Below are positions 4,970 through 47,951 of a stretch of DNA of 64,000 nucleotides, in pieces. Origin of the DNA: a virus. Both the position numbers and the translations under genes were made by a program. The notes under the pieces were generated by a model that was given only the letters and a program-made list of their open reading frames with translations, ran no database searches and had not been told where the DNA came from. The stretch lies in IMG/VR virus record IMGVR_UViG_3300017971_000207, positions 1-64,000 of that record. One strand, written 5' to 3'. How positions within the stretch are numbered: the stretch's first letter is position 1; the number at the start of each line of letters is the position of its first letter.

Positions 4970-5004
4970 GACGCCCTCAAAGTTTCTGTGCTAGAGTTAG
5001 CTTT

Positions 5005-5787
5005 ATGCGGAAGTACCGTAGCACCCCCAAGCTTACAGAAAAACAAGTAGAAGAGATACGAAGAAGGGCCGCTGAAGGAGAGAAGGGTAAGGACCTTGCG
5101 GAGAAGTTTAGTATATCTCGTGGAGCCGTGTCCCTGATACTCCGAGGTCTCACCTGGCCAGACGTCCCTGGCCCGCTCAAGCGCGTCCGACCACGTACCC
5201 AAACCGACACGAAACGCGAACGTGTCGAGCTCTGGCGCCCTGTCCCTGGGTACGAAAACCTCTACAGTGCCTCGAACCTCGGCAACATCCGCATCGAGGT
5301 CACACGCCACAACATCCGCGCGGGTACACACCTCCGACAGACCCGCGACCGCGACGGCTACCTGACTGTCACCCTCACTGACACGAAGAGCCCCAGGGCA
5401 TGTCGCGTGTCGCTGCTGGTCCTCGCGGCCTTTGTCGGACCCCGCCCCGCGGGCCTGGAGACCAACCACAAGGACGGTGATCGTCAGAACAACGCGTTGA
5501 GCAACCTGGAATACGTAACCAAGGCTGAGAACATCAAACACGCTGTCGAGGTGCTCGGTAGTGACCGCAAGGGGATCAACAACCCTTCGGCGAAGCTTGG
5601 CGAGCCGGAGGTCTTGGAGCTGCGCCGCCGCGCGGCCACCGGCGAACCCTACACCACCCTTGGAAAAGCCTTCGGCATCACAAGCGTGATGGCCCGGAAG
5701 ATAGCCACCGGCGAGTGCTGGGAGCACGTGGGAGGCCCCCGGACAACCAAGCGCAAGCTGGGGCGGCCGCCCCAGAGGCACCCCTAA
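5005..5787 (+). CDS. Free-standing NUMOD4-HNH homing endonuclease with HTH domains
   Basis: NUMOD4 motif WRPVPGYENLYSASNLGNIR; HNH motif NHKDGDRQNNALSNLEYVTKAENIKH; flanking HTH-like segments. It is the only convincing plus-strand gene. Confidence 0.92.
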   Translation: MRKYRSTPKLTEKQVEEIRRRAAEGEKGKDLAEKFSISRGAVSLILRGLTWPDVPGPLKRVRPRTQTDTKRERVELWRPVPGYENLYSASNLGNIRIEVTRHNIRAGTHLRQTRDRDGYLTVTLTDTKSPRACRVSLLVLAAFVGPRPAGLETNHKDGDRQNNALSNLEYVTKAENIKHAVEVLGSDRKGINNPSAKLGEPEVLELRRRAATGEPYTTLGKAFGITSVMARKIATGECWEHVGGPRTTKRKLGRPPQRHP

Positions 5788-6092: not shown

Positions 6093-6853
6093 GCCTGGCT
6101 AACGTCCAGCTCCTCCTCAAACTCTAACCCACACTCGGGGCAGACCATCTCCAGAGAGGTATCCACACCCCCCTCAATATCCTCAAAGGCATCCCGCAGG
6201 GCGTTGCGGTCGCGAAGCCCGAGAGCCTGGACCATAGGCAACGTCGGCGGAGCCTCGTTGAGCATCTCCAGGCGCTGCAGAATGCCGAGCGACATAGCCT
6301 GCTTGGTGTTAGCGGCCTCCGCCAGGACCTCCTCGTCACGCCCTAGCAACGGGCGGTACCGCGCCACCTTGCCCGATGGGAGAGTAATGTCGTAGATGCG
6401 CTTCTTGGGGTTTGGCATAGGCTTCACCTCAAGATCGGCTAGGTCCAACGTGAACAGCCCGCTGTACTTGCACTCCTCAGACGGACACTTCCCCCGGAAG
6501 GGGTAGGCATCTCCCAAGGATGTGCGACGAATCGCAAACATCAGGAAGATGCGGTCACCCACCGTCAGCTCGCCGGCAATGCCCGAGAGAGTCTTATTGT
6601 CCGTTATCGTGCCCAGCCGCGTCGTGCATGCTGAGATGAGCTTCCCTACCTTCTTGTGGCCCGGTACTGCCTTGGAGGCGAGCATGTCCTCCTCGTGCCC
6701 CGTAATCTCCCTTACATCCACATCAACGTGGAGTACCCCCTCGGGGTCCAGATACCCGCAGGGCAACGTAAACATCCCAACGGAGCTTTTAGGCTCCTCC
6801 TGCTGTGCCTGCTGGACCGCCTCCAGCACCTGGTCTCGTCCTTGATCTACCAT
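6035..6853 (-). CDS. Tail assembly chaperone / baseplate-hub assembly protein (zinc-binding)
   Basis: Lies between tube genes and tape measure; CPSEEC and CPECG motifs; ends in a GFFF slippery site. Confidence 0.75.
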   Translation of the reverse strand: MVDQGRDQVLEAVQQAQQEEPKSSVGMFTLPCGYLDPEGVLHVDVDVREITGHEEDMLASKAVPGHKKVGKLISACTTRLGTITDNKTLSGIAGELTVGDRIFLMFAIRRTSLGDAYPFRGKCPSEECKYSGLFTLDLADLEVKPMPNPKKRIYDITLPSGKVARYRPLLGRDEEVLAEAANTKQAMSLGILQRLEMLNEAPPTLPMVQALGLRDRNALRDAFEDIEGGVDTSLEMVCPECGLEFEEELDVSQAGFFFPSSVLRASKKRSST

Positions 6854-6866
6854 CGTCCCTTCCTAT

Positions 6867-7490
6867 CTAGTGCGCCCCAGCGCGATCTTTCAGTAAGCTG
6901 TCAGCCTCCTCCTCGTACAGCCGGATAAGGGCCTTGAGGGAGTCTGTAACCGTAAGTCCTCGGGAGTTTACAAGCACCTTGAAGGTGGCATACGCCTGCC
7001 GGTCCACCCACACGTTGACCTTCACATCCGCACCCACGTCCTGCCAGCTGACAAGGTCATCAAAGCGCTCGGTGTCCCGCACGTACATCGACATGAGATA
7101 GCGCACCAGCGCCCCAGCGCTCCTGAAGCCGTTCAAGGCTTTGATCTTGTCGTACATCCGCCGGCTAACCCAGAAGTTCACCGGGCGCCGGGCCTCGCCG
7201 TTCGAGGTTGCCCGAGAGACCGCATCCCTCGCCATCTCGCACGCTCGGCACAGCACGCGGCCGTTGTCGATTGTGAGCTGGCCTCCGGCCTCCACCGGCA
7301 CCAGCATTATCACCCGCAGCTTATGCTTTCCGCCGCAGTTAGAGCAGCAGTCCCGAGTATTCACGAGCACCTGCTTCTCCCACTCGGCCCGCAGCTGTCC
7401 GGGGGTCATCTTCGCCGGGTCGAGCCCCTTCAGAAACTCGATGTGCTCCTCCACCCCTACCTGAACCTTCGGCTCCTCATCCTTAGACAT
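6867..7490 (-). CDS. Degenerate HNH-like zinc finger fused to two ribbon-helix-helix-like repeats; putative regulator
   Basis: CSNCGG...LCRAC zinc ligands without the catalytic His; RRPVNFWVSRRMYDKI and VKVNVWVDRQAYATF repeats. Confidence 0.55.
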   Translation of the reverse strand: MSKDEEPKVQVGVEEHIEFLKGLDPAKMTPGQLRAEWEKQVLVNTRDCCSNCGGKHKLRVIMLVPVEAGGQLTIDNGRVLCRACEMARDAVSRATSNGEARRPVNFWVSRRMYDKIKALNGFRSAGALVRYLMSMYVRDTERFDDLVSWQDVGADVKVNVWVDRQAYATFKVLVNSRGLTVTDSLKALIRLYEEEADSLLKDRAGAH

Positions 7491-7906
7491 TACCCTCTCC
7501 TTTGATCAAAAAGGCGGCGAAGCTCGGGTGGCTGCTCCTCAGCGGGCACGTCCCGCACCTTGCGAATATCCGTCCCCCGCAACCGCACCCACTCCCACGC
7601 AACCTCAGCCGAGCACGCATCCAGATCCAACGGCAGACTAAACACCTCATCAAACGCCGCGGTCACGCACCGCGCGCGGCCTGCGGGGGTGTACATCCAC
7701 ACGTCCACCACGGTGGCCTCGATCAGATACGACGCCAACGTCCGCACGTCCGCCTTGTGCGCGGCCCCAATCCAGATATCCCCGTCGAAGATGTCACTGA
7801 ACACCACCGACGCGCTAAACCACTCATCCACCGACTCGTCATAGCCGAGAGCGCAGAGCGCGAAGCGGTGGCTAAGATACACGTCGGTCACACGTGACCT
7901 TGCCAT
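7490..7906 (-). CDS. Divergent tail-tube-like paralog
   Basis: N-terminus (MARSRVTDVYLSHRF) and C-terminus (DLDACSAEVAWE) align by eye with the two tube-like genes upstream. Confidence 0.45.
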   Translation of the reverse strand: MARSRVTDVYLSHRFALCALGYDESVDEWFSASVVFSDIFDGDIWIGAAHKADVRTLASYLIEATVVDVWMYTPAGRARCVTAAFDEVFSLPLDLDACSAEVAWEWVRLRGTDIRKVRDVPAEEQPPELRRLFDQRRG

Positions 7907-29328: not shown

Positions 29329-32300
29329 CTAGCCCTGAGAAGATCTAGTCAGCTCTTGAACGAGCCCTCTTAACTGCTTTAGCGAACGCCGTAGCACCTC
29401 ATCACCCTGAAGCAAACGATCCAGCTTATCTCCTGCCCGACGCTCTGCCGCCCGACCCCCACCCGCCAGAAGCTGCTGCTCCAACGAGGGGGTCCGAGAG
29501 CTGTGCAAACTACGGCCGGCTCGCCGGTGCTTACCGTTACCGTTAGAGGGGGCCTTAAGCGCCGGTTGATCGGCTCCCTCCATAGGAGCTTCCAACGCCG
29601 CCGCAGCGGCATCTGCCTTAGCGGACCACACGGTCTCGTCCCTAACGTCTGACTCGCGCTGCTGGTAGATGAGCTTGATAGCGTCGTCGCTGAGGTCGAA
29701 GACCTCCTTGTAGATCCACTCTAGCGAGACGAACTCCCTCATCCGCGAAGCGAGGTCTGCCTGAGCGTTCCGGACCTCCAGCTGCGCTAGCTCATAGATC
29801 GAGCTAGGCACCGTCATGTGCACCTCGTAGTCGTACGCTTGAGGGTCCATCCCCAGCGCCGCCATGTGCACCCGACAGACCTTCCCGAGCCCATTGCGCA
29901 GCTCGCGCTGGATACGAAGGACCGTCCGAGCAAACCTAACGTCCTCGCTGCTCAGCACCGCTCGGGCCGTGTTATCGTCCTGCTGCAGATACGCTTTCGG
30001 GATCTTGATGGCCGAGAACATCTTCCCCTGGAAGTACTCAATGTCATCCATATGCTGCCACTGAGGGCCCGAGAGAACATCGATCCGGGTCCCCTCCTGC
30101 CCCTGCCGCGTAGGCAAGAAGAAGTCCTCATCCTGGCTCAAAGCGTCAAAGCTGAAGTCCAGCTTGCCCGTGGTCGGATTGACAAAGCGGCGCTTCTTGT
30201 ACTGCTGACGGACCCGGTTCACATAGGCCAGCGCCTCGGCCGGCGGGAGGTTGCCTACGTCGACGTAAAAGGCGAAACGCTCCGGCGCCCGCGTAAGCCG
30301 GTACAGCAACGCCGAATCCTCCAGCAGCATAAGCCGCTTCCATATCCAGCGAGCCGCCTCCAACACAGAATTGTGCACCACCAACCCATCAGCAACGAAG
30401 TTGTGCTCTCTGTCAGCCACCTCGATGTCGTAGACGAGCTCTTCTCCATCGGGCTCGATACTGACCACCTCCTCGGACGCAAAGTCCCCAGCAGCAAGCG
30501 GTGCCTCACGAAAGTAGAGCTGGTAGGACGGCCCCGTGTTTATCTCACGCCCTCCAATAACTGGGCGCTCCTCCCGTTTACGAGATCGAATGTTACCAGA
30601 GGTCCACCCTAGCCCATCTACCAGATTCTTCAGGTCTCTGAGCAACGCCTCATTGCACAGCTCTATGTGAAAGTAGGGTTCCGGTCCTTGATGCGTCTCC
30701 CAGCCATCCGCATCGACGAATCCCCTCACGAACTCCGCGCGCAGCTCCTCCGGTAGCACAAACACCCACGAAGGCACACGCTTGTGGTGAGCCCCTCCAA
30801 CCCAACCGAAGCGCTGAAACACCTCAGCAAGAACGCGGCTGTGAACCGTACAGCTGCCTCCGGACCGAGAGGAACCAAGACCCATCTCGTCGAACATACG
30901 CTCGTAACGCGCATTGATGGCATCGTGCTCGCCAAGAGCAAAGCCGACCTCGTTATCCCTAACCCAGCCATCCCCCAACATGAACCCGAACAGTCGGCAG
31001 AACGAGGCATCTACAAAGTCCGACAGCCTAGGGATCTTGTGAGCACCGTCATAGGACCTAACCGTGTAGGACCCATCAAAAAGAGGGAGACCCAGCGATG
31101 AAAAAAGATCGCGCAACAACGACTTAGGTACAGAGGACCTACCTTCTAACAGATCCTCTAGAGTACCCCTAGACACCCCAACCGACGATGCCTTGGCGCG
31201 CAAACCCTCATCACGAGGTCCGTAGGCAGAACGCCGTACAAATGAACGCAGCGCCGCTGCCCCCCGAGGCGTCAGCGTTACCCGACACGTCTCAGTGTCC
31301 TCACTCAGGAGAATACCCAACGGCTGCGCCCCCGACAGGTAGGGCTGACGCGCTGCGGCAACAAGCCTATCTCCCGGCTTCACCTCGGACACGGGCAACC
31401 AAGCGTTCTGATTACCCTTCCGAGCCCCCTCCACCAACACCGGATGATTCGCAGTCAACCGCAACGACCTGTGCTTCGTCGAGAGACGGTACACCGGCTT
31501 AGACCCATTACACACGTGATCTAGAACCTTAGTAGTCCGCAGCATTCCAGCATGCCGCGAAAACACTCGATCTCCGGGAACGACATCTCGTATCTCGACT
31601 AGACCCCTTGTCGTCCAGACCCTGGATTCCCCTGTTAAACAGCTCCCATACACGCTGCGGCGATGCTTACCACGCAGACGGAAGTGCACCACCTCCCAAT
31701 CCTCTAGAGCAGCTAGCTGCTCATCCTGATTGCCCCCGTCCATCTGATGCTGCTTCGAATACTCCTGCGCAATCAGCGCGGTACGGGTGGCCAAGATCTG
31801 CCGAAAATCCTCGGGTGAGTTGTGAACAACCACCCCATCTGCCACGAAGTTATGAGCATCGTCCTCAACCTCCAGATCAAAAACCTCCTCGTCACCATGG
31901 TAGGACACCTCTAGCACCGTCTCAGCCACCAAAGGCTCCGCGAAGCGCTCGTCGGTAAAGGATACCGTATAGCAAGGCTGCTGCGTCTGAATGACCTTCC
32001 CTTTGACCACCGTGCCCGGCTCGCGCGTGCGTGAGGAGATGTTCCCACAGACGTAGCCCAAACCGTCGATCAAGTTCTTGAGGTCCCGCGCAAGGTCGTA
32101 GTTGGCTATCTCAAAGAAGTGCCGAAGCTTCCGACGGGGTTGCTTGTTGACCCACCCATCCGCGTCCAAGAACCCTCGCAAAAACGCCTCTCGGTGGTCT
32201 TCAGGCAGCGTGTAGACCCACGCGGGTACTCGCTTCTTATCAAACCCATCAATCCACCCTAAAGCCGGCAGCAGGCGCCAGAGCTGGACGGAGCACACAA

Positions 32301-33492
32301 CGGTCTCCTCGCCCACCACCGCACCATCGGACCGAACCTGCTTTACCCTAGGGTCGAGCCCCAAAGCTGCTAGAAGATTGTCGTACAGCTCGTTCTGCTC
32401 CGGGTATTCTCCACGAGCATAGGCCACTCGGCCCTCCGCCTCTGACTTCGACCGCCACCCATCTCCCAGCAGAAACCCTAGTAGACGGCAGAAGCCCGCT
32501 GACGGCCTCTCAGGGAGCTGTAGCTGACGCGGGGTGCCCTGGTCCCCCCAAGGCACCTCAAACGGGCTCTCGGCCCACAGGGACGACCACTCAGGAATCT
32601 CTCCCGCAGGCATCCGCGTACTCACAACAATCTTTGATGTCCGAGAGTAATCAATGTTCCGCTTCTTGCCGCGGTACCTAACAATCCGCAGGTCCTTCAC
32701 CCGAACCCACTCCCGCGACCCGTCGAGCCTCTGGGCCAACACCGGGTGATCTTCCGTCAGAAAGACCTCGCGGTGTCTTGTGCGGACCTTGTAAACCTTC
32801 TTGGTGCCGTTGACGTGAAGCTGTTTGACAGGCAGAAGAGCAGGCTTACCGTCGCTGCACCCCAGCACGGAGCCGCGCTCGAAGGCTTGAATCTCCGTCA
32901 GACCACGGTCGGTCCAAACGCGTGAGCCGTGTGCGAGGCAATACCCAAAACGCCCTTTGAAGTCCTGGATGAACCCGTAAAGCTCCCCACGCGGCCCCTC
33001 AATACGCCGCACAGTCGGAGGAGGTAGGTAGTTAAAACCCACCACGCCGTCAGCCGTCACCAGCAGCTCCTCGAAGTCATTACCGTACTTGATCAGCGTC
33101 CGAGCTATCTCCCATATCTCCTCATCCAAGCGCAGTTGCTTGTTGAGCAGATCGTTGAGCATGTTGGCGATGTTCTGGTTTGACGACGTGACCCACACCG
33201 TACGATTCAGCTGCGTGTCGGGCTGCGTGCTATCATCCGCAAAGACGTCGATGGCCGCCGACAGCTCAGGATAATCATCCATCTCCTCATAGTCGGCATA
33301 GCGAGACAGCAGATCTTGCTCCAGGCGCAGGTAGTCCGCGAGGACCTCGTAGCCATACGCTTGCAGAATGTCATAGCCGCTGCCGGGGTAGCCCGCCGCC
33401 GTGGCACCTTTCGCGAGCTGGACCGCAACCTGCTCCTTGTCCTTGGTCCACGCCTGGCGAATGCGATTGGCTATGTTGCTAAAGAACCCCAC
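29329..33492 (-). CDS. Portal protein (T4 gp20-like) with two inteins; about 589 aa spliced
   Basis: YEEMDDYPELSAAID, LEDSALLYRLTRAPERFAFYVDVGNLP, EDFFLP and DDIEYF motifs. Confidence 0.95.
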   Translation of the reverse strand: MGFFSNIANRIRQAWTKDKEQVAVQLAKGATAAGYPGSGYDILQAYGYEVLADYLRLEQDLLSRYADYEEMDDYPELSAAIDVFADDSTQPDTQLNRTVWVTSSNQNIANMLNDLLNKQLRLDEEIWEIARTLIKYGNDFEELLVTADGVVGFNYLPPPTVRRIEGPRGELYGFIQDFKGRFGYCLAHGSRVWTDRGLTEIQAFERGSVLGCSDGKPALLPVKQLHVNGTKKVYKVRTRHREVFLTEDHPVLAQRLDGSREWVRVKDLRIVRYRGKKRNIDYSRTSKIVVSTRMPAGEIPEWSSLWAESPFEVPWGDQGTPRQLQLPERPSAGFCRLLGFLLGDGWRSKSEAEGRVAYARGEYPEQNELYDNLLAALGLDPRVKQVRSDGAVVGEETVVCSVQLWRLLPALGWIDGFDKKRVPAWVYTLPEDHREAFLRGFLDADGWVNKQPRRKLRHFFEIANYDLARDLKNLIDGLGYVCGNISSRTREPGTVVKGKVIQTQQPCYTVSFTDERFAEPLVAETVLEVSYHGDEEVFDLEVEDDAHNFVADGVVVHNSPEDFRQILATRTALIAQEYSKQHQMDGGNQDEQLAALEDWEVVHFRLRGKHRRSVYGSCLTGESRVWTTRGLVEIRDVVPGDRVFSRHAGMLRTTKVLDHVCNGSKPVYRLSTKHRSLRLTANHPVLVEGARKGNQNAWLPVSEVKPGDRLVAAARQPYLSGAQPLGILLSEDTETCRVTLTPRGAAALRSFVRRSAYGPRDEGLRAKASSVGVSRGTLEDLLEGRSSVPKSLLRDLFSSLGLPLFDGSYTVRSYDGAHKIPRLSDFVDASFCRLFGFMLGDGWVRDNEVGFALGEHDAINARYERMFDEMGLGSSRSGGSCTVHSRVLAEVFQRFGWVGGAHHKRVPSWVFVLPEELRAEFVRGFVDADGWETHQGPEPYFHIELCNEALLRDLKNLVDGLGWTSGNIRSRKREERPVIGGREINTGPSYQLYFREAPLAAGDFASEEVVSIEPDGEELVYDIEVADREHNFVADGLVVHNSVLEAARWIWKRLMLLEDSALLYRLTRAPERFAFYVDVGNLPPAEALAYVNRVRQQYKKRRFVNPTTGKLDFSFDALSQDEDFFLPTRQGQEGTRIDVLSGPQWQHMDDIEYFQGKMFSAIKIPKAYLQQDDNTARAVLSSEDVRFARTVLRIQRELRNGLGKVCRVHMAALGMDPQAYDYEVHMTVPSSIYELAQLEVRNAQADLASRMREFVSLEWIYKEVFDLSDDAIKLIYQQRESDVRDETVWSAKADAAAAALEAPMEGADQPALKAPSNGNGKHRRAGRSLHSSRTPSLEQQLLAGGGRAAERRAGDKLDRLLQGDEVLRRSLKQLRGLVQELTRSSQG
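30370..31641 (-). mobile_element. Portal intein 2 (424 aa, in-frame LAGLIDADG)
   Basis: YGS|CLTGESRV...TANHPV...GFMLGDG...FVRGFVDADG...VVHN|S. Confidence 0.95.
31819..32940 (-). mobile_element. Portal intein 1 (374 aa, in-frame LAGLIDADG)
   Basis: FGY|CLAHGSRV...TEDHPV...GFLLGDG...FLRGFLDADG...VVHN|S. Confidence 0.95.
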
Positions 33493-33501
33493 GGGCTACA
33501 C

Positions 33502-34231: not shown

Positions 34232-37200
34232 TCAGAAAACGCCGTCTGAGCCCCAGCCTGAGCCACCACGGCCCCATCCAGGCGAGCCCATACCGCCACC
34301 CAAGATCGGTGGGAGCACGTTCGGCTGCTGCCCGACCGGAAGCTGGGCCGCCGGTGGATAAAAGCGACCACTGTCGACGTGCCGGCCCGATAGACGACGC
34401 GCCGCGGCTGCGTGCTGCTGCTCCTCCATCCAGACGTCGGCCGAGGCCATCGCGCCGCGGAGCACAGGGAGCGGCTGCGTGGCCTGATGCTGCGACAGAG
34501 TGTAGATACAGCCCGCCAGGGCATCGCTCGTATCCTTAGAGCCCTTCTTGGGATGATCGACGCGCTGGCGCTTTGCGTCCAGCTCCAGCTCCCGCAGCTC
34601 TTTGAACACCGTAGGGTAACGATAGATGTTAATCCGATCCTCATAAAAAGCCGTCTTGAGCGCCTCGTACGGGTCCATCTTCGTGTCGACCGAGAGATGC
34701 TCCGCCGCATACCCCTTCTGCTTCAGCTGCTGTAACGCGTCGATCGACTGCCATGTATCCTGAGTAACCAGGGTGATAATGAAACCGTGAGCACTAAGCT
34801 CATAGACGAGGCGCCGCAGGTCGCCGAGCACAATCTCGTCCCCCACTGGAGGGACGATGCGCAGAATAACATCGACAAAGTAGATCGGCTGCCGCTCCTG
34901 GAATACCTCCCCGTCCTCCGCACGGCGCAGTACGTCCTTCCAGCCGCTGATATGAGCCATACAGAAGCCCACCGAATCCTTACGATAGGCAGGGTCGATG
35001 TGGATGTGCCGCGCCGCCTTGGGGTTGACAATCGGCGTCAGGGACTCGTGAGTGTAGCCCGAGAAGTCCCGCATCTGCGTCTTACGTACGAGGTTTTCCC
35101 AGATGAACGTCCCCGGCTTGGAGGGGTCGTATACCTCCACGCTGAAGGGATGCTGCCGCGTGTCGTCAAAGACAAGCTTCTCGCGACGCTGAACAAAGGG
35201 GCTAACTGCAACGGTCGACACCCCCGCGATATCTCTTATGCTGCCTTCAAGGTCACGCTCGAAGTCCGACTTGAAGTCGACGGGGACCGCTACCAACGTG
35301 ACGCCGTCAGGCACCCCGTCCCGCTCCAACCTGCTCTCCTCCCCCTCGTCCAGGATACGCGAGGGTATCTGCTCATTACCGCACAGCACATAGAAGCGCT
35401 CGGGGCTAAAGTGGTCCGCGGGCTTTGAATCCCACAGCGCGTAATCTCGGACCATCACCCGCGGGTCCTCCTTAGCTTCCCGAATGCGCCGCGCCGTGAA
35501 GTCATCCGCGGTCTTCTTTGACGAAACGAGGAAGATCTTCCCGAGCACACGGCCGCCCCGGCCGAAGCGGGATTTCATGCGGCGCTTGAGACCGTTGTAG
35601 ATCATCTCCGCGTGGTCCACAGCCCCCATCCGTGGGTCTATCTTGCGCCCCTTGCTAAGGAAGTTGCTGTTGTGAACGAGCACCCCGTCCCCTATGAAGA
35701 CCTCACATCCTGGGACGCAAATGTCGTAGGTAGGGAGCATTCCCAGCCCTCTCTTGGACACGACGCGGGCCACAGTAAACGCTCGTCCCATACCTCGTAT
35801 ACCCACCCCTGACGAGCGCAATACGCCCGTACCGCTCCCATCTTCGCCTTCTCCTTGGGGTTGGATATGTAGCCTCTGGGCTTCACCTCGACGACCAGCG
35901 TGCGGCCGTCGCTCAGCTCGACCACGTAATCCGGCACAGTGTTGCGTCGCTTGTCCTCCCAAAGGTACGGCACCGACAGCTTCTCGTAACGGTAAGCGGC
36001 TACATCCGAACGCCCCTCCAATATCTCCACCGCTCGAAGCTCCCACAGCGAACGAAAGCCCAGCAAACCCGCCTTCGTCGTCTCGACACGGCCTAGATAC
36101 CTCCAATCTCCCTTCTTCAGGCGCCAGACGCTTGACGCCGATATCTTGGCCCGTGTCTCCTCCGAATGCGTGTAGTCCCGAGTGCGGTTGTATTCGATCA
36201 AACGCCGCTTGAACGCTTCCGTATGCATAGGTTTGCCCCGCCGCGCCTCTGACATTTTGCGTCGCGCCTCCGCCGAGGGGCGCCTCCCAGTCGCAGCCTC
36301 TCGCAACCGCTGCTTGTGCTCCTCTGACAGAGGCTTGCCGTAGTTGGGGTTGTCCTCCCCCACCATTGGCGGCGGTGGTCGCAAGTTGCTGTCTCCAGCG
36401 GCCCAACGCTCCTTCATCGCCCGCGACACTTTGGAACGCGCCTCGTCCGACATCACCTTCCCTCGGTTTCCCTCTCCTATCTTGCGCTTGGTCTCCTCCG
36501 TGTGCTTCCAACCAGTCCTCTTCCTCCGCGCCTCCGCCATCTTGCGCTTTGCTTCCGCCGTATGCTTGCGCCCATGAAACGGGTTCTTTGAGCCCGTCCG
36601 CTGCTTGGCTATCTCCGATAAGCGTCTCTTTTGATCCTCCGAAAGCTTCTGACCTTTCCTCGGCATATGTGACAACCTCCTCACCCGGAAGTATATCACG
36701 CATTAACTTGAAGCCTAGAACCCCGTCACGGCCTAGCACAGCCACCGGATGCCTCCACGACGCGCGCAGACGTTGCCCCCCGTCAAGCTCTACCTCAAAG
36801 CACTCCTGGACCGTCGAACGCTTGATATACGCATCAGCCTCCACTGGGCAGCCCCCCTCTACCGACAGCAACCTAAAGGGCAACCGCAGCGGCCCACAAG
36901 ACTCATAAAGAGCCTCCGCAGTGGCCACCCGACCCCCTGGAAGCGACACCAAGGTATCAGCGCACACGCACTCATCCACTAAGGCCCCGAGGGTGTTCAA
37001 ACCCAATGCGGAGGTGTCCGTGGTGGCCCGAGCTGCCAGCCACACGTTGTTGGGGAACCTGAACTCCTTCCGCGTAGCCTTGTACGGGAAGTGCTCCGCA
37101 AAGTAAGGGCTAGCTTTGAGCTTCGTCGCAATGTTCTCAAAGGCGACCTTCATCGCCAGGCCCTCATTGACGCTCAAGCACACGATCGAGATGTCGGTGT

Positions 37201-37642
37201 CCGGCGCCAGCCCAAGAGAGGCGTGAGGGTCGCGGAGGCAGGATAGCTCGTAGAGCATACGGCAGACTGCTACGGACGCTGAAAAGGTCTTTCCCCCTCC
37301 GATCGCCCCCGTAAAGATGACCTCTTCGTAGTCGCCCCCCTCAAAGAGCTCCTCCATGTCCGAGAGCCATCTGGGATACAGCACGCTGCAGGTGTTGCCG
37401 AGGTAGTAGTCATCCTTGACGAAGGTCGCGATATCCACGGGAGGATGCTTGAACTCGGCCTCGCTCACGATATCGATTAGGGGGCGGTCGCCCTCGCTAC
37501 GCTCCTCCTCGACCTCCGTCAACAGCACCATCAAGGCTGCGCGCTCATCCGGGCTTAGCGCTGCTAGCTCCTGCCGTAGGTCGGCCTCGTCCTCCTCAGC
37601 CGTACGCTTGCTGAAGATCCGACCACCGCGGTTTACGAGCAC
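34232..37642 (-). CDS. terL: Terminase large subunit with one intein; about 702 aa spliced
   Basis: Walker A GAIGGGKT; Walker B LVDE|S; nuclease HIHID...DHPKKGSKDTSDA. Confidence 0.93.
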   Translation of the reverse strand: MLVNRGGRIFSKRTAEEDEADLRQELAALSPDERAALMVLLTEVEEERSEGDRPLIDIVSEAEFKHPPVDIATFVKDDYYLGNTCSVLYPRWLSDMEELFEGGDYEEVIFTGAIGGGKTFSASVAVCRMLYELSCLRDPHASLGLAPDTDISIVCLSVNEGLAMKVAFENIATKLKASPYFAEHFPYKATRKEFRFPNNVWLAARATTDTSALGLNTLGALVDECVCADTLVSLPGGRVATAEALYESCGPLRLPFRLLSVEGGCPVEADAYIKRSTVQECFEVELDGGQRLRASWRHPVAVLGRDGVLGFKLMRDILPGEEVVTYAEERSEAFGGSKETLIGDSQAADGLKEPVSWAQAYGGSKAQDGGGAEEEDWLEAHGGDQAQDRRGKPREGDVGRGAFQSVAGDEGALGRWRQQLATTAANGGGGQPQLRQASVRGAQAAVARGCDWEAPLGGGATQNVRGAAGQTYAYGSVQAAFDRIQPHSGLHAFGGDTGQDIGVKRLAPEEGRLEVSRPCRDDEGGFAGLSFAVGASSGGDIGGAFGCSRLPLREAVGAVPLGGQATQHCAGLRGRAERRPHAGRRGEAQRLHIQPQGEGEDGSGTGVLRSSGVGIRGMGRAFTVARVVSKRGLGMLPTYDICVPGCEVFIGDGVLVHNSNFLSKGRKIDPRMGAVDHAEMIYNGLKRRMKSRFGRGGRVLGKIFLVSSKKTADDFTARRIREAKEDPRVMVRDYALWDSKPADHFSPERFYVLCGNEQIPSRILDEGEESRLERDGVPDGVTLVAVPVDFKSDFERDLEGSIRDIAGVSTVAVSPFVQRREKLVFDDTRQHPFSVEVYDPSKPGTFIWENLVRKTQMRDFSGYTHESLTPIVNPKAARHIHIDPAYRKDSVGFCMAHISGWKDVLRRAEDGEVFQERQPIYFVDVILRIVPPVGDEIVLGDLRRLVYELSAHGFIITLVTQDTWQSIDALQQLKQKGYAAEHLSVDTKMDPYEALKTAFYEDRINIYRYPTVFKELRELELDAKRQRVDHPKKGSKDTSDALAGCIYTLSQHQATQPLPVLRGAMASADVWMEEQQHAAAARRLSGRHVDSGRFYPPAAQLPVGQQPNVLPPILGGGMGSPGWGRGGSGWGSDGVF
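35669..36970 (-). mobile_element. TerL intein (434 aa) without in-frame endonuclease
   Basis: VDE|CVCADTLV...SWRHPV...TYDICVPGCEVFIGDGVLVHN|S; the middle reads as low-information G/A/R text. Confidence 0.92.
35692..36666 (-). CDS. Nested +1-frame endonuclease: NUMOD3 repeats plus TnsA-like PD-(D/E)XK domain
   Basis: GAGGAGG SD 9 nt before the ATG; repeated H(T/S)EETKRKI(S/G) NUMOD3 motifs; FRSLWE...YRYE...PDYVV...VEVKP. Confidence 0.9.
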   Translation of the reverse strand: MPRKGQKLSEDQKRRLSEIAKQRTGSKNPFHGRKHTAEAKRKMAEARRKRTGWKHTEETKRKIGEGNRGKVMSDEARSKVSRAMKERWAAGDSNLRPPPPMVGEDNPNYGKPLSEEHKQRLREAATGRRPSAEARRKMSEARRGKPMHTEAFKRRLIEYNRTRDYTHSEETRAKISASSVWRLKKGDWRYLGRVETTKAGLLGFRSLWELRAVEILEGRSDVAAYRYEKLSVPYLWEDKRRNTVPDYVVELSDGRTLVVEVKPRGYISNPKEKAKMGAVRAYCARQGWVYEVWDERLLWPASCPREGWECSLPTTFASQDVRSS

Positions 37643-38439: not shown

Positions 38440-38524
38440 TGCCCAAGCTGGGAATCGAACCCAGACGCCTCTACGAGACAACGGGTTTTAAACCCGTCCC
38501 GACTACCAATTACGGCACTTGGGC
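38440..38524 (-). tRNA. trnL: tRNA-Leu(TAA), long variable arm
   Basis: GCCCAAG/CTTGGGC acceptor; ACGGG-TT TAA AA-CCCGT; CTGGG-TTCGATT-CCCAG. Confidence 0.9.
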
Positions 38525-38953
38525 TAGAAACTGCGCGCGAGGACGAGCCCCGCAAGAATAAACCTGCCTTCTCCTACTCCACTTACCAGAGCAAGACTTG
38601 CTACAAAATGGCCCCGCCTTACCCTGCTTCCTATTCGAGCGGACCACACGTGCCGGTTTAGTTCCTTGTCCCCCACACTCAGGACAAGCAAAAACCACAA
38701 GCTCCTCGGACCTCGCATGCTCTCGCGCGTGGTCCCCACGAGAGATAACCTCCAGATTACCCAACGCATTGTTGGCTCTGTTTCCATCCCTGTGATGAAC
38801 ACACTCCCAACTCTCCAGCTTACGGCCCAGATGCGCCTCCATAACCTCCCGATGCTCTAGAACACTACGCTTAGTACCATCCGACAATCTCTCGACCCTC
38901 ATTCGGTACCCCTTCATGTTATACCAACCAGACCTCCACGCAACTTCAACCAT
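38510..38953 (-). CDS. Free-standing HNH endonuclease with zinc finger
   Basis: LEHREVME...VHHRDGNRANNALGNLE...H; CPECG...FCSKSC. Confidence 0.9.
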   Translation of the reverse strand: MVEVAWRSGWYNMKGYRMRVERLSDGTKRSVLEHREVMEAHLGRKLESWECVHHRDGNRANNALGNLEVISRGDHAREHARSEELVVFACPECGGQGTKPARVVRSNRKQGKAGPFCSKSCSGKWSRRRQVYSCGARPRAQFLAQVP

Positions 38954-46000: not shown

Positions 46001-47951
46001 GCGTCCCCCCCACGACGCAATAGTCGGTAACGATTAGTATTCGGCCATCGCCCGGTCTGAAGCAATCACGGTACTCAAAAGCGCGAGGAATCTGCTGCAG
46101 GTTTGGCGATCGGCTATTATGAGAGAAGACCCCACAAGCCTCATAGCTCTCATCTACGGCGACGGTAATGTCATAGACCTCACGACTTCCGCAAGCGTAG
46201 ACTTCCTCAATTGTAACGTCTTGCTGTCCTTCAGCTGCCTGTAGTGAATAGCCTTGTGGCCTGAGTGAGTCACCAGCGCGAGGTTGTGCAGATCGTTGTT
46301 CTTCGGATCCCCGTCTATGTGATGGACCGTCAAGTGCTCGGGAATCTCCCCCAAGCCCAACGCTTCGGCCATCACCACGCGATGAACGAATCGCCTCTTG
46401 CCATTGTGCAGGCAAGTCAGATACCCATAGCCGTCGTCGCACAACCCCTTCCAGTTGTGGTGTTGCTCCCCCTTCTTGCCCCACATAGGATTCTGCTCCC
46501 CCGTCTTTGATGCCGAGTAACGCAGAGCTGCTAACGCCTTGCGCTCGGCCTCCGGCATACACGATCGTACCACATGCGACACGTTGTGAAACGTAGTCCC
46601 CAGCCTCTCGGCAACCTCTGTAAGCTTCAACATCTCCGGGCTCCGGTACAGTTCCAGAACATCCCGACGATTCTTCGCGTCCCCTGTCCAAGTCTTTGAT
46701 ACACTCATCTACCATACTCCGAACAGACTTCCACTCACCAGTAGAGAGTAGCAATCTGTGGGAGCCCGTGCACTTCAAAACCTCCCCGTTACTAAAACGT
46801 ACCGAATATATCCTCTCGGGTTTAAGCCTCCAATGGTTGATGACGGGCTGCCAACGCTCCTTGTGGGTCCATACCTGGTCACCGACAGAGACATCCTCCA
46901 TCCGCTTCATACCCTCAGTGGTCCGGATAAGTGTCTCCCCCACTACGCAGCTGTATCGGCCAGCTCCAGTTAGCGGCCAGAAGTCCGTATGGATACGACC
47001 CGTCTTCGGATTGATGTTCTCCAGGTAGTCAGGACCGAAGGAGTCGACACGCTTCGATATCTTGCGGTACTCGATGAAGAGCGGGAAGACCTTATGCTTT
47101 GTCGCGATCATCGCAATGAGGTCTGACGCCGTGCTCGTCAGACCAAGATTAAGCGGCTTACCGTTCGGCTTGGTCAGCGAGTTAAAGCTCGCGAGCACCT
47201 GCTGCGGCGAGCGGTAGTTGAAGCCCGAGGGAATGCCCGGCAGGCTCAGCAGCCCCTTCGGATGCGGCAGCATCACATCCAGCTTATTGCGCAGCTCCTC
47301 TAGCTTACGCTTGTTGGCCTCCGCTACCTTGAGCCACATCTCGCTATCCAACCGAAAGCCGTTCAGCTCTATCTCCGCCTCGGCGAGAGGGGCCCCGAAC
47401 TCGATCAAGGCTATACGGTTGAGCCCTGCCTTGGCCAGCTTCGGCTTGAGCGCGTCCCGCAGCTCTAGGAGGTACGTCACATCCTCCGCCGCATAGTCTA
47501 GCTGCTCTTCCCCAAGCTCGGCCGCCGACCAGTCCGACCCTCCCATGTCCCCTGTCCCTGGCTCTACCTTGAGCTCTCGGGCATACAGGTCATAAAGGTT
47601 GTTCCCCAAAAAGCGGCCATTGTGGATAATCGCAGAGGCCCGAAAGGTATCGAACACAGGCCACAATTCAATACCGTGGTGAAAGAGTAGCCACTTCTGC
47701 TCAAACTTCGCGTTCTGGATCACCTTAATGGCGGAGCCCTTCAGCGCCTCCACCAACGGCCCCATAGTGCACGTCTTGAACAGGTCAATGACGTAGATAC
47801 CCTGCCCTGTGTTGAGCTGCAGCAGCCGTATCTTCCCGTCGCGCGGGTCCAAGGAGGTGGTCTCAATGTCGAGACCCACCACCTTGGCGTTGTCGACCTC
47901 GTTGGCTATGGCCCCTAACCGCTCCGCAGAGGTGACGTATTCATAGCTCAT
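43077..47951 (-). CDS. polA: Family A DNA polymerase (3'-5' exo plus pol) with three inteins; about 589 aa spliced
   Basis: ExoI DIET, NAKFE and YAAED; GRYS|SRSPNLQQIP; motif A DY|SQIELR; motif B RQAAKPVNFGLIYG; motif C VHDE. Confidence 0.96.
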   Translation of the reverse strand: MSYEYVTSAERLGAIANEVDNAKVVGLDIETTSLDPRDGKIRLLQLNTGQGIYVIDLFKTCTMGPLVEALKGSAIKVIQNAKFEQKWLLFHHGIELWPVFDTFRASAIIHNGRFLGNNLYDLYARELKVEPGTGDMGGSDWSAAELGEEQLDYAAEDVTYLLELRDALKPKLAKAGLNRIALIEFGAPLAEAEIELNGFRLDSEMWLKVAEANKRKLEELRNKLDVMLPHPKGLLSLPGIPSGFNYRSPQQVLASFNSLTKPNGKPLNLGLTSTASDLIAMIATKHKVFPLFIEYRKISKRVDSFGPDYLENINPKTGRIHTDFWPLTGAGRYSCVVGETLIRTTEGMKRMEDVSVGDQVWTHKERWQPVINHWRLKPERIYSVRFSNGEVLKCTGSHRLLLSTGEWKSVRSMVDECIKDLDRGREESSGCSGTVPEPGDVEAYRGCREAGDYVSQRVACGTIVYAGGRAQGVSSSALLGIKDGGAESYVGQEGGATPQLEGVVRRRLWVSDLPAQWQEAIRSSRGDGRSVGLGGDSRALDGPSHRRGSEEQRSAQPRAGDSLRPQGYSLQAAEGQQDVTIEEVYACGSREVYDITVAVDESYEACGVFSHNSRSPNLQQIPRAFEYRDCFRPGDGRILIVTDYCVVGGTRVATSEGLVPVENVAVGAEVLVEDGTKHRVSDRISKGVQSVYRIRTKLGYELRATSLHRIRVLDREGAYVWKRLHEIGPSDYVAVQSGRGLSEASSKVVLPPKPSGGVNSKEVRVPGEVSEDLAFFVGYFVGDGNLGSNYLRWVVNAKDPAVHERLLGLCEELFGLRDLHVKEYRGVIETHVNRKQLRDWFVALGVSKGAVPGFLWSSPPRVVGAFLRGLFEADGSAGGDHVKLVSSRRRLIVEVQQLLLALGVLSTRRKERHGEGRRYVGWSLRVPRLFLSRFVETVGFFSWRKQGKLSGLIGRGPVSPTVGSVPNMQERVRELRLEGEVRRLLNNTASLGRSVSFLVAVKLREEHPEVYRELGLSRTVEDGTFFDAVDSIELDGEEDVYDLSVPGPVTYISDGFVSHNSQIELRLAAEVTQDPVLIGIYLRGEDAHRRTASIVAGVPYDEVTKAQRQAAKPVNFGLIYGLGAAKLVVYSQANYGVTITEAQANKFIKRYFDGYPRVRAWQERSLRDAKRVPYARTLWGRRRYLDPETARNEYFNCLDFETEALTRRGWVRGPDLALGDEILTKNPKTGALEWQAPTDLRVFEPVERELTEFKSKSFHAVSTADHRWLVYNKGARKDMERRTSTLSRHGDDRIHRTGRYEGPESSLLSDDFVELAGWWLTDGGIQKTRRVYDRPGKRGPKPSGVSLKLYQSVRANPYKVACIEALLGRLGMRYSKSENGEAGGRMWYFRHPLNEVLVQLCPGRVLTMDLLNLLTARQCRLLLQTMIGGDGWRSDKTAFVSRSREGAEVFQILCTLCGYVGSIKKRDMRKYRPRSPKLKNVPKGTEHWQVTVLNRDKAQVLKKHVRQLKGVFGIWCPIVPNTFFVARRSGHVFITGNTPIQGSGADGLKRSLRNVYFRLKRFGSRAKMVHMVHDEIVVECDDDEELVAQVKLEVEQAMIEGIQPMMRSVPCVAEGDTGRSWAAH
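43341..44363 (-). mobile_element. Polymerase intein 3 (341 aa, in-frame LAGLIDADG-like, ends GN|T)
   Basis: YFN|CLDFETEALT...TADHRW...AGWWLTDG...FITGN|TPIQG. Confidence 0.93.
44772..46019 (-). mobile_element. Polymerase intein 2 (416 aa, in-frame LAGLIDADG) in motif A
   Basis: TDY|CVVGGTRV...GYFVGDG...FLRGLFEADG...FVSHN|S. Confidence 0.95.
46116..46949 (-). mobile_element. Polymerase intein 1 (278 aa) without in-frame endonuclease
   Basis: RYS|CVVGETLI...CTGSHRL...VYDITVAVDESYEACGVFSHN|S. Confidence 0.93.
46154..46708 (-). CDS. Nested +1-frame HTH-HNH endonuclease inside polymerase intein 1
   Basis: GGAG SD 8 nt before the ATG; NPMWGK, HHNWKG, FVHRVVMAE and VHHIDGDPKNNDLHNLALVTHSGHKAIH. 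Confidence 0.92.
   Translation of the reverse strand: MSVSKTWTGDAKNRRDVLELYRSPEMLKLTEVAERLGTTFHNVSHVVRSCMPEAERKALAALRYSASKTGEQNPMWGKKGEQHHNWKGLCDDGYGYLTCLHNGKRRFVHRVVMAEALGLGEIPEHLTVHHIDGDPKNNDLHNLALVTHSGHKAIHYRQLKDSKTLQLRKSTLAEVVRSMTLPSP

Follow-up and report, generated by a model that had tools for sequence, protein, structure and literature searches.

Inteins normally carry their endonucleases as in-frame domains. Several departures from this arrangement have been described. In fractured genes, the intein is split and a free-standing endonuclease gene lies between the two halves (Dassa et al. 2009, PMC2677866). Gosselin, Arsenault and Gogarten reported 63 actinophage inteins with non-canonical endonucleases, some of them in terminase genes, and distinguished an antisense LAGLIDADG type, an antisense VSR-like type and an endonuclease VII-like type in sense frame 3; the origin proposed for them is the invasion of inteins by free-standing endonuclease genes (bioRxiv 10.1101/2025.01.02.630785). 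The ShiLan insert of phage DNA methylases is a stop-free insert that hides an HNH endonuclease encoded out of frame (Arsenault et al. 2025, PMC11855218), and a cyanobacterial dnaX intein with an out-of-frame homing endonuclease and a sporadic distribution is reported in a 2026 preprint (bioRxiv 10.64898/2026.09.14.751524). The subject of the present analysis is an intein of related layout in a putative large-terminase gene of an uncultivated large phage. The DNA analysed, referred to below as the window, comprises positions 1 to 64,000 of IMG/VR record IMGVR_UViG_3300017971_000207, a viral record of 145 kb that is about 64% complete according to the CheckV estimate.

The intein lies right after the Walker B Asp-Glu of its host gene, and the slot usually taken by the endonuclease domain is spanned by a separate gene in the +1 frame, which encodes a candidate homing endonuclease. 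This is probably a dual-coding intein, with a disordered spacer that is spliced out in cis and a homing nuclease that is initiated internally. Ribosomes in the terminase frame would read through the nuclease gene and produce a precursor in which the halves of a HINT domain flank a disordered spacer of about 288 residues; protein splicing would then remove the whole intein and restore the ATPase. The nuclease would be made separately from the same mRNA, by ribosomes that initiate internally, at the ATG and Shine-Dalgarno sequence of the nuclease gene. In a co-infection its presumed targets are terminase alleles that lack the intein, which it would cut in or close to the Walker B codons, and repair would copy the element into them.

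The intein and the nuclease gene within it

The host open reading frame (ORF) carries a Walker A motif (GAIGGGKT) and a Walker B motif (LVDE), and lies directly upstream of a gene with a Portal_T4 match (E 4e-65). A portal gene is also adjacent in two related contigs, L001 and L003. Intein-less relatives of the host protein measure about 680-720 aa, and its Atlas neighbours are viral hypothetical proteins with PF27249. The terminase label is putative, and draws on the Walker A and B motifs, the size of about 700 aa and the position upstream of the T4-like portal gene.

The first residue of the intein is encoded by the Cys codon at 36970-36968, directly after the Walker B DE, and opens the motif CVCADT. 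Block B ([TS]xxH) is present as SWRH, within SWRHPV, and its His74 is invariant in six relatives. At its other end the intein reads VLVHN, with the Asn codon at 35671-35669, and Ser comes next; neither H433 nor N434 varies, and the +1 residue is S or T in all. The region leading up to this end is highly conserved (ARVVSKR..PTYD..VPG..VHN). The splicing blocks had been called intact in an original prediction made from the sequence alone, and CVCADT, SWRHPV and VLVHN before Ser all lie where it had placed them. Ten intein-less relatives read DE followed by [ST/G]NF at the insertion point, with no other gap there in the alignment, and the insertion is therefore precise. We infer that the terminase precursor is spliced, because the host ATPase is presumed to be essential and its Walker B motif is interrupted.

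An AF2 model built from the intein alignment separates the two ends from the middle: the predicted local distance difference test score (pLDDT) is about 28 in the spacer (residues 105-392) and 78-92 at the ends. The ends superpose on mini-inteins (VIA), with Z of 19.5 to 2imz (141 residues aligned, rmsd 2.4), 19.3 to 4o1s and 19.0 to 1am2. By this model, residues 1-104 and 393-434 would form the HINT splicing domain. The in-frame translation of the spacer has no Pfam match and no recognisable fold in the AF2 model. The middle of the intein had been described as uninformative, which agrees with its lack of structure, but it is about 288 residues long and not about 320.

A scan of both frames against Pfam places nuclease domains in the +1 frame, while the host frame across the same DNA gives a weak Intein_splicing match at its two ends only. 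The +1-frame ORF (36666-35692, 324 aa) matches NUMOD3 in five stretches (E 1.3e-21) and Tn7_TnsA-like_N (PF08722) with E 6.4e-9 and 36.7 bits against a cut-off of 26.5, and the proposed NUMOD3/TnsA-like nuclease is thereby recovered from the ORF itself. NUMOD3 arrays are typical of homing endonucleases. The NCBIfam profile TnsA_like_Actin scores 46 bits against a cut-off of 110 and covers the catalytic core only, and a sequence comparison with the Protein Data Bank (PDB) gave no match at E<=1. Residues D246 and E260 are invariant and K262 is nearly invariant in 11 homologues; in the nine closest homologues, all three are invariant. In the predicted structure, the N-terminal repeat region is rich in helices, and the C-terminal catalytic domain reaches a pLDDT of 85-96. 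The best solved Foldseek matches of this domain are to TnsA (1t0f_A, E 3e-7; 1f1z_A, E 2e-6, with 128 columns and an rmsd of 3.0), so that the model assigns it a restriction-endonuclease-like fold. Vsr-type chains are absent among the Foldseek matches listed, and the motif is the canonical D/E-x-K and not the His-based Vsr site.

The nuclease gene occupies the endonuclease slot, as had been predicted, but its stop lies between intein blocks F and G, 8 codons before the end of the intein, and not inside block F. Its 3' end overlaps the C-terminal splicing region by about 100 nt.

Selection in the two reading frames

The layout is found in eight DNAs from independent metagenomic assemblies, namely the window and the contigs L001, L003, L165, L166, L167, L168 and L171. 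Each of the eight has its nuclease in the +1 frame of an intein, always at the same site of the host gene, and no stop closes the host frame over the length of the nuclease ORF or, where the contig is short, as far as its ends. The nucleases with this layout are 32-55% identical; six stand at about 50%, and the distant L171 at 32-35%. Gene callers reduced these loci to a nuclease and a truncated C-terminal piece of the terminase, and such inteins are therefore systematically mis-annotated.

The absence of stops was assessed by permuting synonymous codons within the nuclease, with the protein and the codon usage kept, in 20000 shuffles. In the window, the intein frame across the nuclease has no stop against 11.7 expected, and none of the 20000 shuffles reaches zero; in the third frame, 11 stops stand against an expectation of 11.1. 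AA, AG or GA follows not one of the nuclease's 42 T-ending codons, though 29% of codons start in this way (analytic P ~6e-7). The same test gives no intein-frame stop against 6.5-12.6 expected in L001, L003, L165, L166, L167 and L168, and none against 8.8 expected in the distant L171, while the third frame matches expectation in all eight DNAs. The open intein frame of the original prediction is in this way matched by a depletion of stop-forming junctions (T followed by AA, AG or GA) in both the window and its relatives, and homologues with stops in the intein frame, which would have spoken against it, were sought among the eight DNAs without one being found.

Amino-acid constraint was followed, in codon alignments guided by the nuclease protein, through the divergence at each codon position, which was preferred to a formal dN/dS on account of saturation and the overlapping frames. 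In the nuclease body, divergence is highest at codon position 3 (0.43-0.60, against 0.19-0.49 at the other two), and amino-acid identity among relatives amounts to about 0.5 for the nuclease frame and about 0.3 for the spacer frame. Over the last 29 nuclease codons (~35695-35781), the most variable position in most pairs is nuclease position 2, which is intein position 3, and intein-frame identity equals or exceeds nuclease-frame identity in most pairs. Amino-acid selection follows the nuclease frame through the body and passes to the intein frame for about the last 30 codons, as seen in the per-frame comparison of homologous inteins that the original prediction had asked for. Close homologues share a conserved nuclease tail, LWPASCPRE.W.CSLPTT, because it is the shadow of intein block F; since block F imposes this tail, all close homologues must reside in the same intein. 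Selection acts on the nuclease amino acids, on the intein splicing blocks and, in the spacer, only against host-frame stops.

An assembly or sequencing artefact, in which an in-frame domain was displaced by two compensating indel errors, has a next to negligible probability. Indel errors do occur in metagenome assemblies; here the boundaries fall in short overlap zones, so that the frames would be joined by a shift of one base near each end, and one relative, P0122, changes frame inside the spacer. However, the same +1 offset recurs in eight independent assemblies, which come from different samples and pipelines, the host frame is free of the 6.5-12.6 stops that an unselected frame would be expected to have, and a stop lies just upstream of the nuclease ATG in the window, L001 and L003. 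In addition, Logan contigs from two runs (sediment, 2018; seawater, 2021), at a depth of about 9x, match positions 35500-37100 of the window without any difference; these two contig sets count as weak independent support, as the source sample may be among them. Compensating indels were specifically sought and neither Logan assembly has any. On these four grounds the artefact was rejected.

The nuclease might instead be a decaying relic, a former in-frame domain or a dead invader that is unexpressed or non-functional, with only the terminase frame under selection. Homing endonucleases commonly decay after fixation, no RNA run is found among the holders of the stretch, one homologue (P0007, from L168) has an internal deletion and no Pfam TnsA match, and P0122 is seemingly frameshifted. 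Decay is nonetheless very unlikely. An unprotected nuclease frame would gather stops, whereas the ORF is intact in all eight DNAs across 32-55% identity, with position 3 as its most divergent codon position. None of the catalytic D/E/K residues changes among the nine closest homologues, both start codon and Shine-Dalgarno sequence are kept, and the catalytic domain is confidently folded in the model.

The start signals bear on how the nuclease is made. In the alignment, the eight DNAs have their start codon at one and the same position (TTG in L165, ATG in the other seven), although the intein residues that overlap it vary (Y/H/D/F, then A/G). The GAGGAGG of the window, noted from the start as doubling as the intein codons for GEEV, is found at 36682-36676, and among the relatives GAGGAGG, CAGGAGG or GACGAGG stands 9-10 nt upstream of the start as a Shine-Dalgarno-like sequence. 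In L171, a 9-nt insert displaces the conserved GACGAGG, and the insert brings a new GGAGG 7 nt before the ATG. The nuclease frame of the window is closed by a TAA at 36705-36703, 12 codons upstream of the ATG; the distance is also 12 codons in L003, and in L001 the frame is closed 1 codon before the ATG. With a stop 1-12 codons upstream of the start, a simple fusion product is excluded. The conserved start position, the Shine-Dalgarno sequence and the upstream stop therefore favour, as far as sequence can tell, independent initiation of the nuclease over a fusion made by frameshifting.

Programmed +1 ribosomal frameshifting from the terminase frame would yield a fusion of N-extein, N-intein and nuclease. 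Such a fusion is biologically plausible, for the contig L170 encodes a related nuclease joined in frame to an N-intein half (protein P0147). However, hardly any space exists for a shift site, since the nuclease frame is closed 12 codons (window, L003) or 1 codon (L001) ahead of the ATG; the invariant start position and the Shine-Dalgarno sequence at canonical spacing fit initiation, and no conserved RNA structure was found at the start site, all of which makes frameshifting highly improbable. In the window, a hairpin over the Shine-Dalgarno sequence and AUG has a folding energy of -29 kcal/mol (z -1.86), and 11 of 200 shuffles fold as well. A conserved regulatory RNA hairpin at the start site was considered and rejected, as the alignment of seven sequences contains no consensus pairs.

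Taken over these computational tests, the dual-coding proposal of the original prediction, with a host frame kept open by selection, a spacer unselected for sequence and a nuclease start of its own, is supported. The coordinates of the features are collected in Table 1.

Table 1. Coordinates, in the window, of the intein, its host gene and the nuclease gene, and of the DNA polymerase ORF with an inner endonuclease gene.
Feature	Coordinates	Strand	Remarks
Host ORF, putative large terminase	34232..37642	minus	1136-aa precursor, open through the intein
N-extein, 224 aa	36971..37642	minus	Ends at Walker B ...LVDE; from alignment with intein-less relatives
Class-1 intein, 434 aa	35669..36970	minus	Cys1 ... 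His-Asn, then Ser at +1
Intein N-terminal splicing region, residues 1-104	36659..36970	minus	Blocks A and B (CVCADT, SWRHPV); pLDDT 78-92
Intein-frame spacer, residues 105-392	35795..36658	minus	Stop-free read-through of the nuclease gene; predicted disordered
Intein C-terminal splicing region, residues 393-434	35669..35794	minus	Blocks F and G; pLDDT 88-92
C-extein, 478 aa and stop	34232..35668	minus	Begins SNF...
Nuclease gene, +1 frame, 324 aa and TAG	35692..36666	minus	ATG at 36666 to TAG at 35694-35692
Shine-Dalgarno sequence GAGGAGG	36676..36682	minus	9 nt before the ATG, inside intein codons G-E-E-V
NUMOD3 repeat array, nuclease residues ~5-160	36187..36654	minus	Presumed DNA-binding; Pfam
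TnsA-like PD-(D/E)XK catalytic domain, nuclease residues ~190-300	35767..36099	minus	Pfam PF08722
Dual-constraint overlap	35692..35794	minus	Nuclease C-terminal tail over the intein C-terminal splicing region
DNA polymerase ORF, 1624 aa	43077-47951	minus	Intein with an inner +1-frame gene
HNH_3 gene in DNA polymerase intein 1, 184 aa, +1 frame	46154-46708	minus	Pfam E 2.2e-12

Carriers and other intein arrangements

Homing elements show a patchy distribution. In a tree built from 36 exteins of related viral contigs, each of the three full-length carriers belongs to a separately supported clade of its own, beside intein-free alleles, and the starred branches force at least three changes. One carrier, L003, is 89% identical to the intein-free L098. 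The scan of viral contigs with the nuclease alignment, which was keyed on the generic NUMOD3 motif, returned only distant NUMOD3 proteins; scans of genome contigs for further carriers found none; and the scan of metagenome contigs found one, identical to L168. Cultured-phage records contain partial and distant matches only.

An expressed nuclease need not be the homing enzyme of this intein, and may be a free-standing selfish or accessory nuclease that uses the spacer as a landing pad. Proteins with NUMOD3 and a TnsA-like domain are numerous as stand-alone genes (756 matches at E<=1e-10), the nuclease body and the intein ends can differ in history, as L003 and L168 illustrate, and the invasion of inteins by free-standing endonucleases is what Gosselin et al. 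propose (bioRxiv 10.1101/2025.01.02.630785). Set against this, the homologues P0001-P0008 all have the tail imposed by block F, which places them in the same intein at the same terminase site, and intein and nuclease co-occur in every carrier and are patchily distributed as a unit. An independent nuclease in a landing pad is accordingly unlikely, and the favoured account is still that of a homing nuclease that belongs to its intein.

The comparison of L003 (~4727-5180) with L168 (1012-1465) yields a single stretch that blastn can align, of 455 nt at 87% DNA identity. It spans the 3' end of the nuclease gene, the intein C-terminus and the start of the C-extein, and there is hardly a difference in the last 29 nuclease codons. 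As proteins, the two nuclease bodies are only 41% identical, and that of L168 has an internal deletion. Judged by sequence, the pattern suggests mosaicism or an exchange of the nuclease within the intein.

Several observations weigh against a dual-coding intein that spreads by homing. Firstly, old vertical inheritance with repeated loss could explain part of the patchiness without recent homing. The divergence of the exteins between carriers (45-51% identity) is similar to that of the nucleases (44-53%), and old inheritance with repeated loss is therefore possible. Secondly, a motif that is conserved in the intein, G-[EQD]-E-V, is encoded over the Shine-Dalgarno sequence, and the intein could be the cause of part of the conservation of that sequence. 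Thirdly, no RNA run is listed among the runs that hold the stretch; the DNA is the source from which both the use of ATG 36666 as a translation start and the splicing of a precursor that contains a 288-residue spacer are deduced. Fourthly, motifs and synteny agree with the terminase identity given in the original prediction, but profiles do not contribute to it: neither the exteins nor the intein-less relatives have a terminase match in Pfam, PHROG, NCBIfam or PDB profiles. Finally, the relative P0122, from a contig of ENA ERZ28612979, is a predicted terminase of 1045 aa with a LAGLIDADG intein at Walker A, and the frame of its Walker-B spacer runs into the nuclease frame at about nuclease residue 92. 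P0122, known from the predicted protein alone, is a copy that is frameshifted or in decay, or else the result of an assembly error.

Other intein arrangements exist among the relatives. The contig L170 (1-3568) encodes, in a terminase-like gene, a NUMOD3/TnsA-like nuclease of 31% identity (P0147) in frame with an N-extein and an N-intein half, which ties the NUMOD3/TnsA-like family to inteins. The fused ORF (1-1857) ends in a stop, and the C-intein half and C-extein form a separate ORF; the gene called for it begins at position 1790, so that about 68 nt are shared with the first. The arrangement is that of a split intein whose N half bears the nuclease, or else of an in-frame intein with one frameshift.

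L001 has a second intein site in its terminase (6100-7650), at DHPKAG followed by C..., which has the form of a classic fractured gene. The N-intein half ends at 6429, a free-standing HNH_3 gene follows at 6456-7268, and a 126-aa ORF (7270-7650) comprises the C-intein half (...VVHN) and the C-extein (SKDTSDALAG...). Ordinary in-frame terminase inteins are present in L099-L101, L107, L109, L115, L116, L121 and L138, at the Walker A site (~residue 118), at a C-terminal site (~residue 1034), or at both. With the inteins at Walker A and at the C-terminal site, this terminase family has at least three insertion sites.

The phage itself is unusually rich in inteins, with examples in portal, terminase and polymerase genes. 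The DNA polymerase intein is a second case of an overprinted endonuclease in the same window, as its host frame has no stop across the HNH_3 gene against 8.0 expected; the polymerase ORF apparently holds further inteins. The T4-like portal gene (29335-33495, minus strand, 1387 aa) has matches to Intein_splicing in two stretches, LAGLIDADG_3 and Hint_2. Upstream of the terminase region lies a free-standing HNH_3 endonuclease gene (38510-38953, minus strand, 147 aa, Pfam E 7.8e-9).

Comparison with described systems

It is a more tentative suggestion, rated a little short of an even chance, that NUMOD3 with TnsA-like PD-(D/E)XK makes up an unrecognised family of homing endonucleases whose overprinting is, in this lineage, long-lived and selectively maintained and not a transient accident. 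Overprinting persists down to 32% nuclease identity, and on this suggestion it would not be a brief step towards a split or in-frame intein; production of the nuclease would be tied to the late terminase transcript, and a disordered spacer would be tolerated in the splicing precursor. The relatives offer a natural series of arrangements, with the nuclease overprinted, fused to an N-intein half, or the gene fractured and split at a second site of a related terminase. This series bears on how inteins acquire endonucleases, and on the view that splicing comes first and the endonuclease invades later.

As a protein, the nuclease resembles TnsA, the endonuclease subunit of the Tn7 transposase (PDB 1f1z, 1t0f), in its predicted restriction-enzyme-like fold and its D...E-x-K motif. 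Unlike TnsA, it lacks the TnsA C-terminal domain, the partners TnsB and TnsC and the transposon context, and its gene sits inside a phage intein.

Fractured genes share with this locus a separately translated endonuclease at the intein endonuclease site (here a predicted product), and they too occur in phage replication and packaging genes, including terminase (PMC2677866). The 3' overlap of the endonuclease with the downstream intein part is 6-69 bp in fractured genes and about 100 bp here. The host frame of fractured genes is broken into two ORFs that are joined by trans-splicing, whereas here it is a single uninterrupted, stop-free ORF in all relatives with DNA, and splicing would therefore be in cis. 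Furthermore, the endonucleases of fractured genes are GIY-YIG or Vsr-like (PMC2677866), while the one described here is TnsA-like.

Similar to the present case, the ShiLan insert is a stop-free in-frame insert that conceals an out-of-frame endonuclease ORF with its own start (PMC11855218). It has no splicing domains and is thought to be kept as a protein loop, whereas here intein blocks and a predicted HINT fold flank the ORF. The dnaX intein, as reported, differs in having a cellular host and a LAGLIDADG-type endonuclease (bioRxiv 10.64898/2026.09.14.751524), in contrast to the phage host and TnsA-like nuclease of this locus.

The closest likeness is to the inteins of Gosselin et al. (bioRxiv 10.1101/2025.01.02.630785). 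In both, the intein resides in an essential phage gene, including the terminase large subunit, the endonuclease ORF occupies the endonuclease slot out of the intein frame, the in-frame translation there has no recognisable structure, and the distribution across exteins is patchy. Unlike the types distinguished by those authors, the present endonuclease is encoded on the sense strand in the +1 frame, and combines a NUMOD3 array with a TnsA-like PD-(D/E)XK domain. Their inteins come from cultured actinophages, and those described here from uncultivated large phages of sediment and seawater metagenomes. The terms TnsA and NUMOD are absent from their paper, and no paper that combines TnsA, NUMOD and homing endonuclease was found in the open-access literature.

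The original prediction knew of no described case, but such layouts are in fact described by Gosselin et al. (bioRxiv 10.1101/2025.01.02.630785), for the ShiLan insert (PMC11855218) and in the dnaX preprint. The separately framed endonuclease design has thus already been described and does not form a new category. This locus extends the recently recognised class of inteins in which the endonuclease is a separate, overlapping gene to a further nuclease family and to uncultivated phages of marine and sediment origin. It also adds quantitative evidence that both frames are selected, in the purging of host-frame stops, the switch of constraint at the C-terminal splicing blocks and the kept internal start. 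Compared with the known systems, what is new here is the nuclease family, the habitat and phage group, the depth of conservation and the explicit statistics on selection in two frames.

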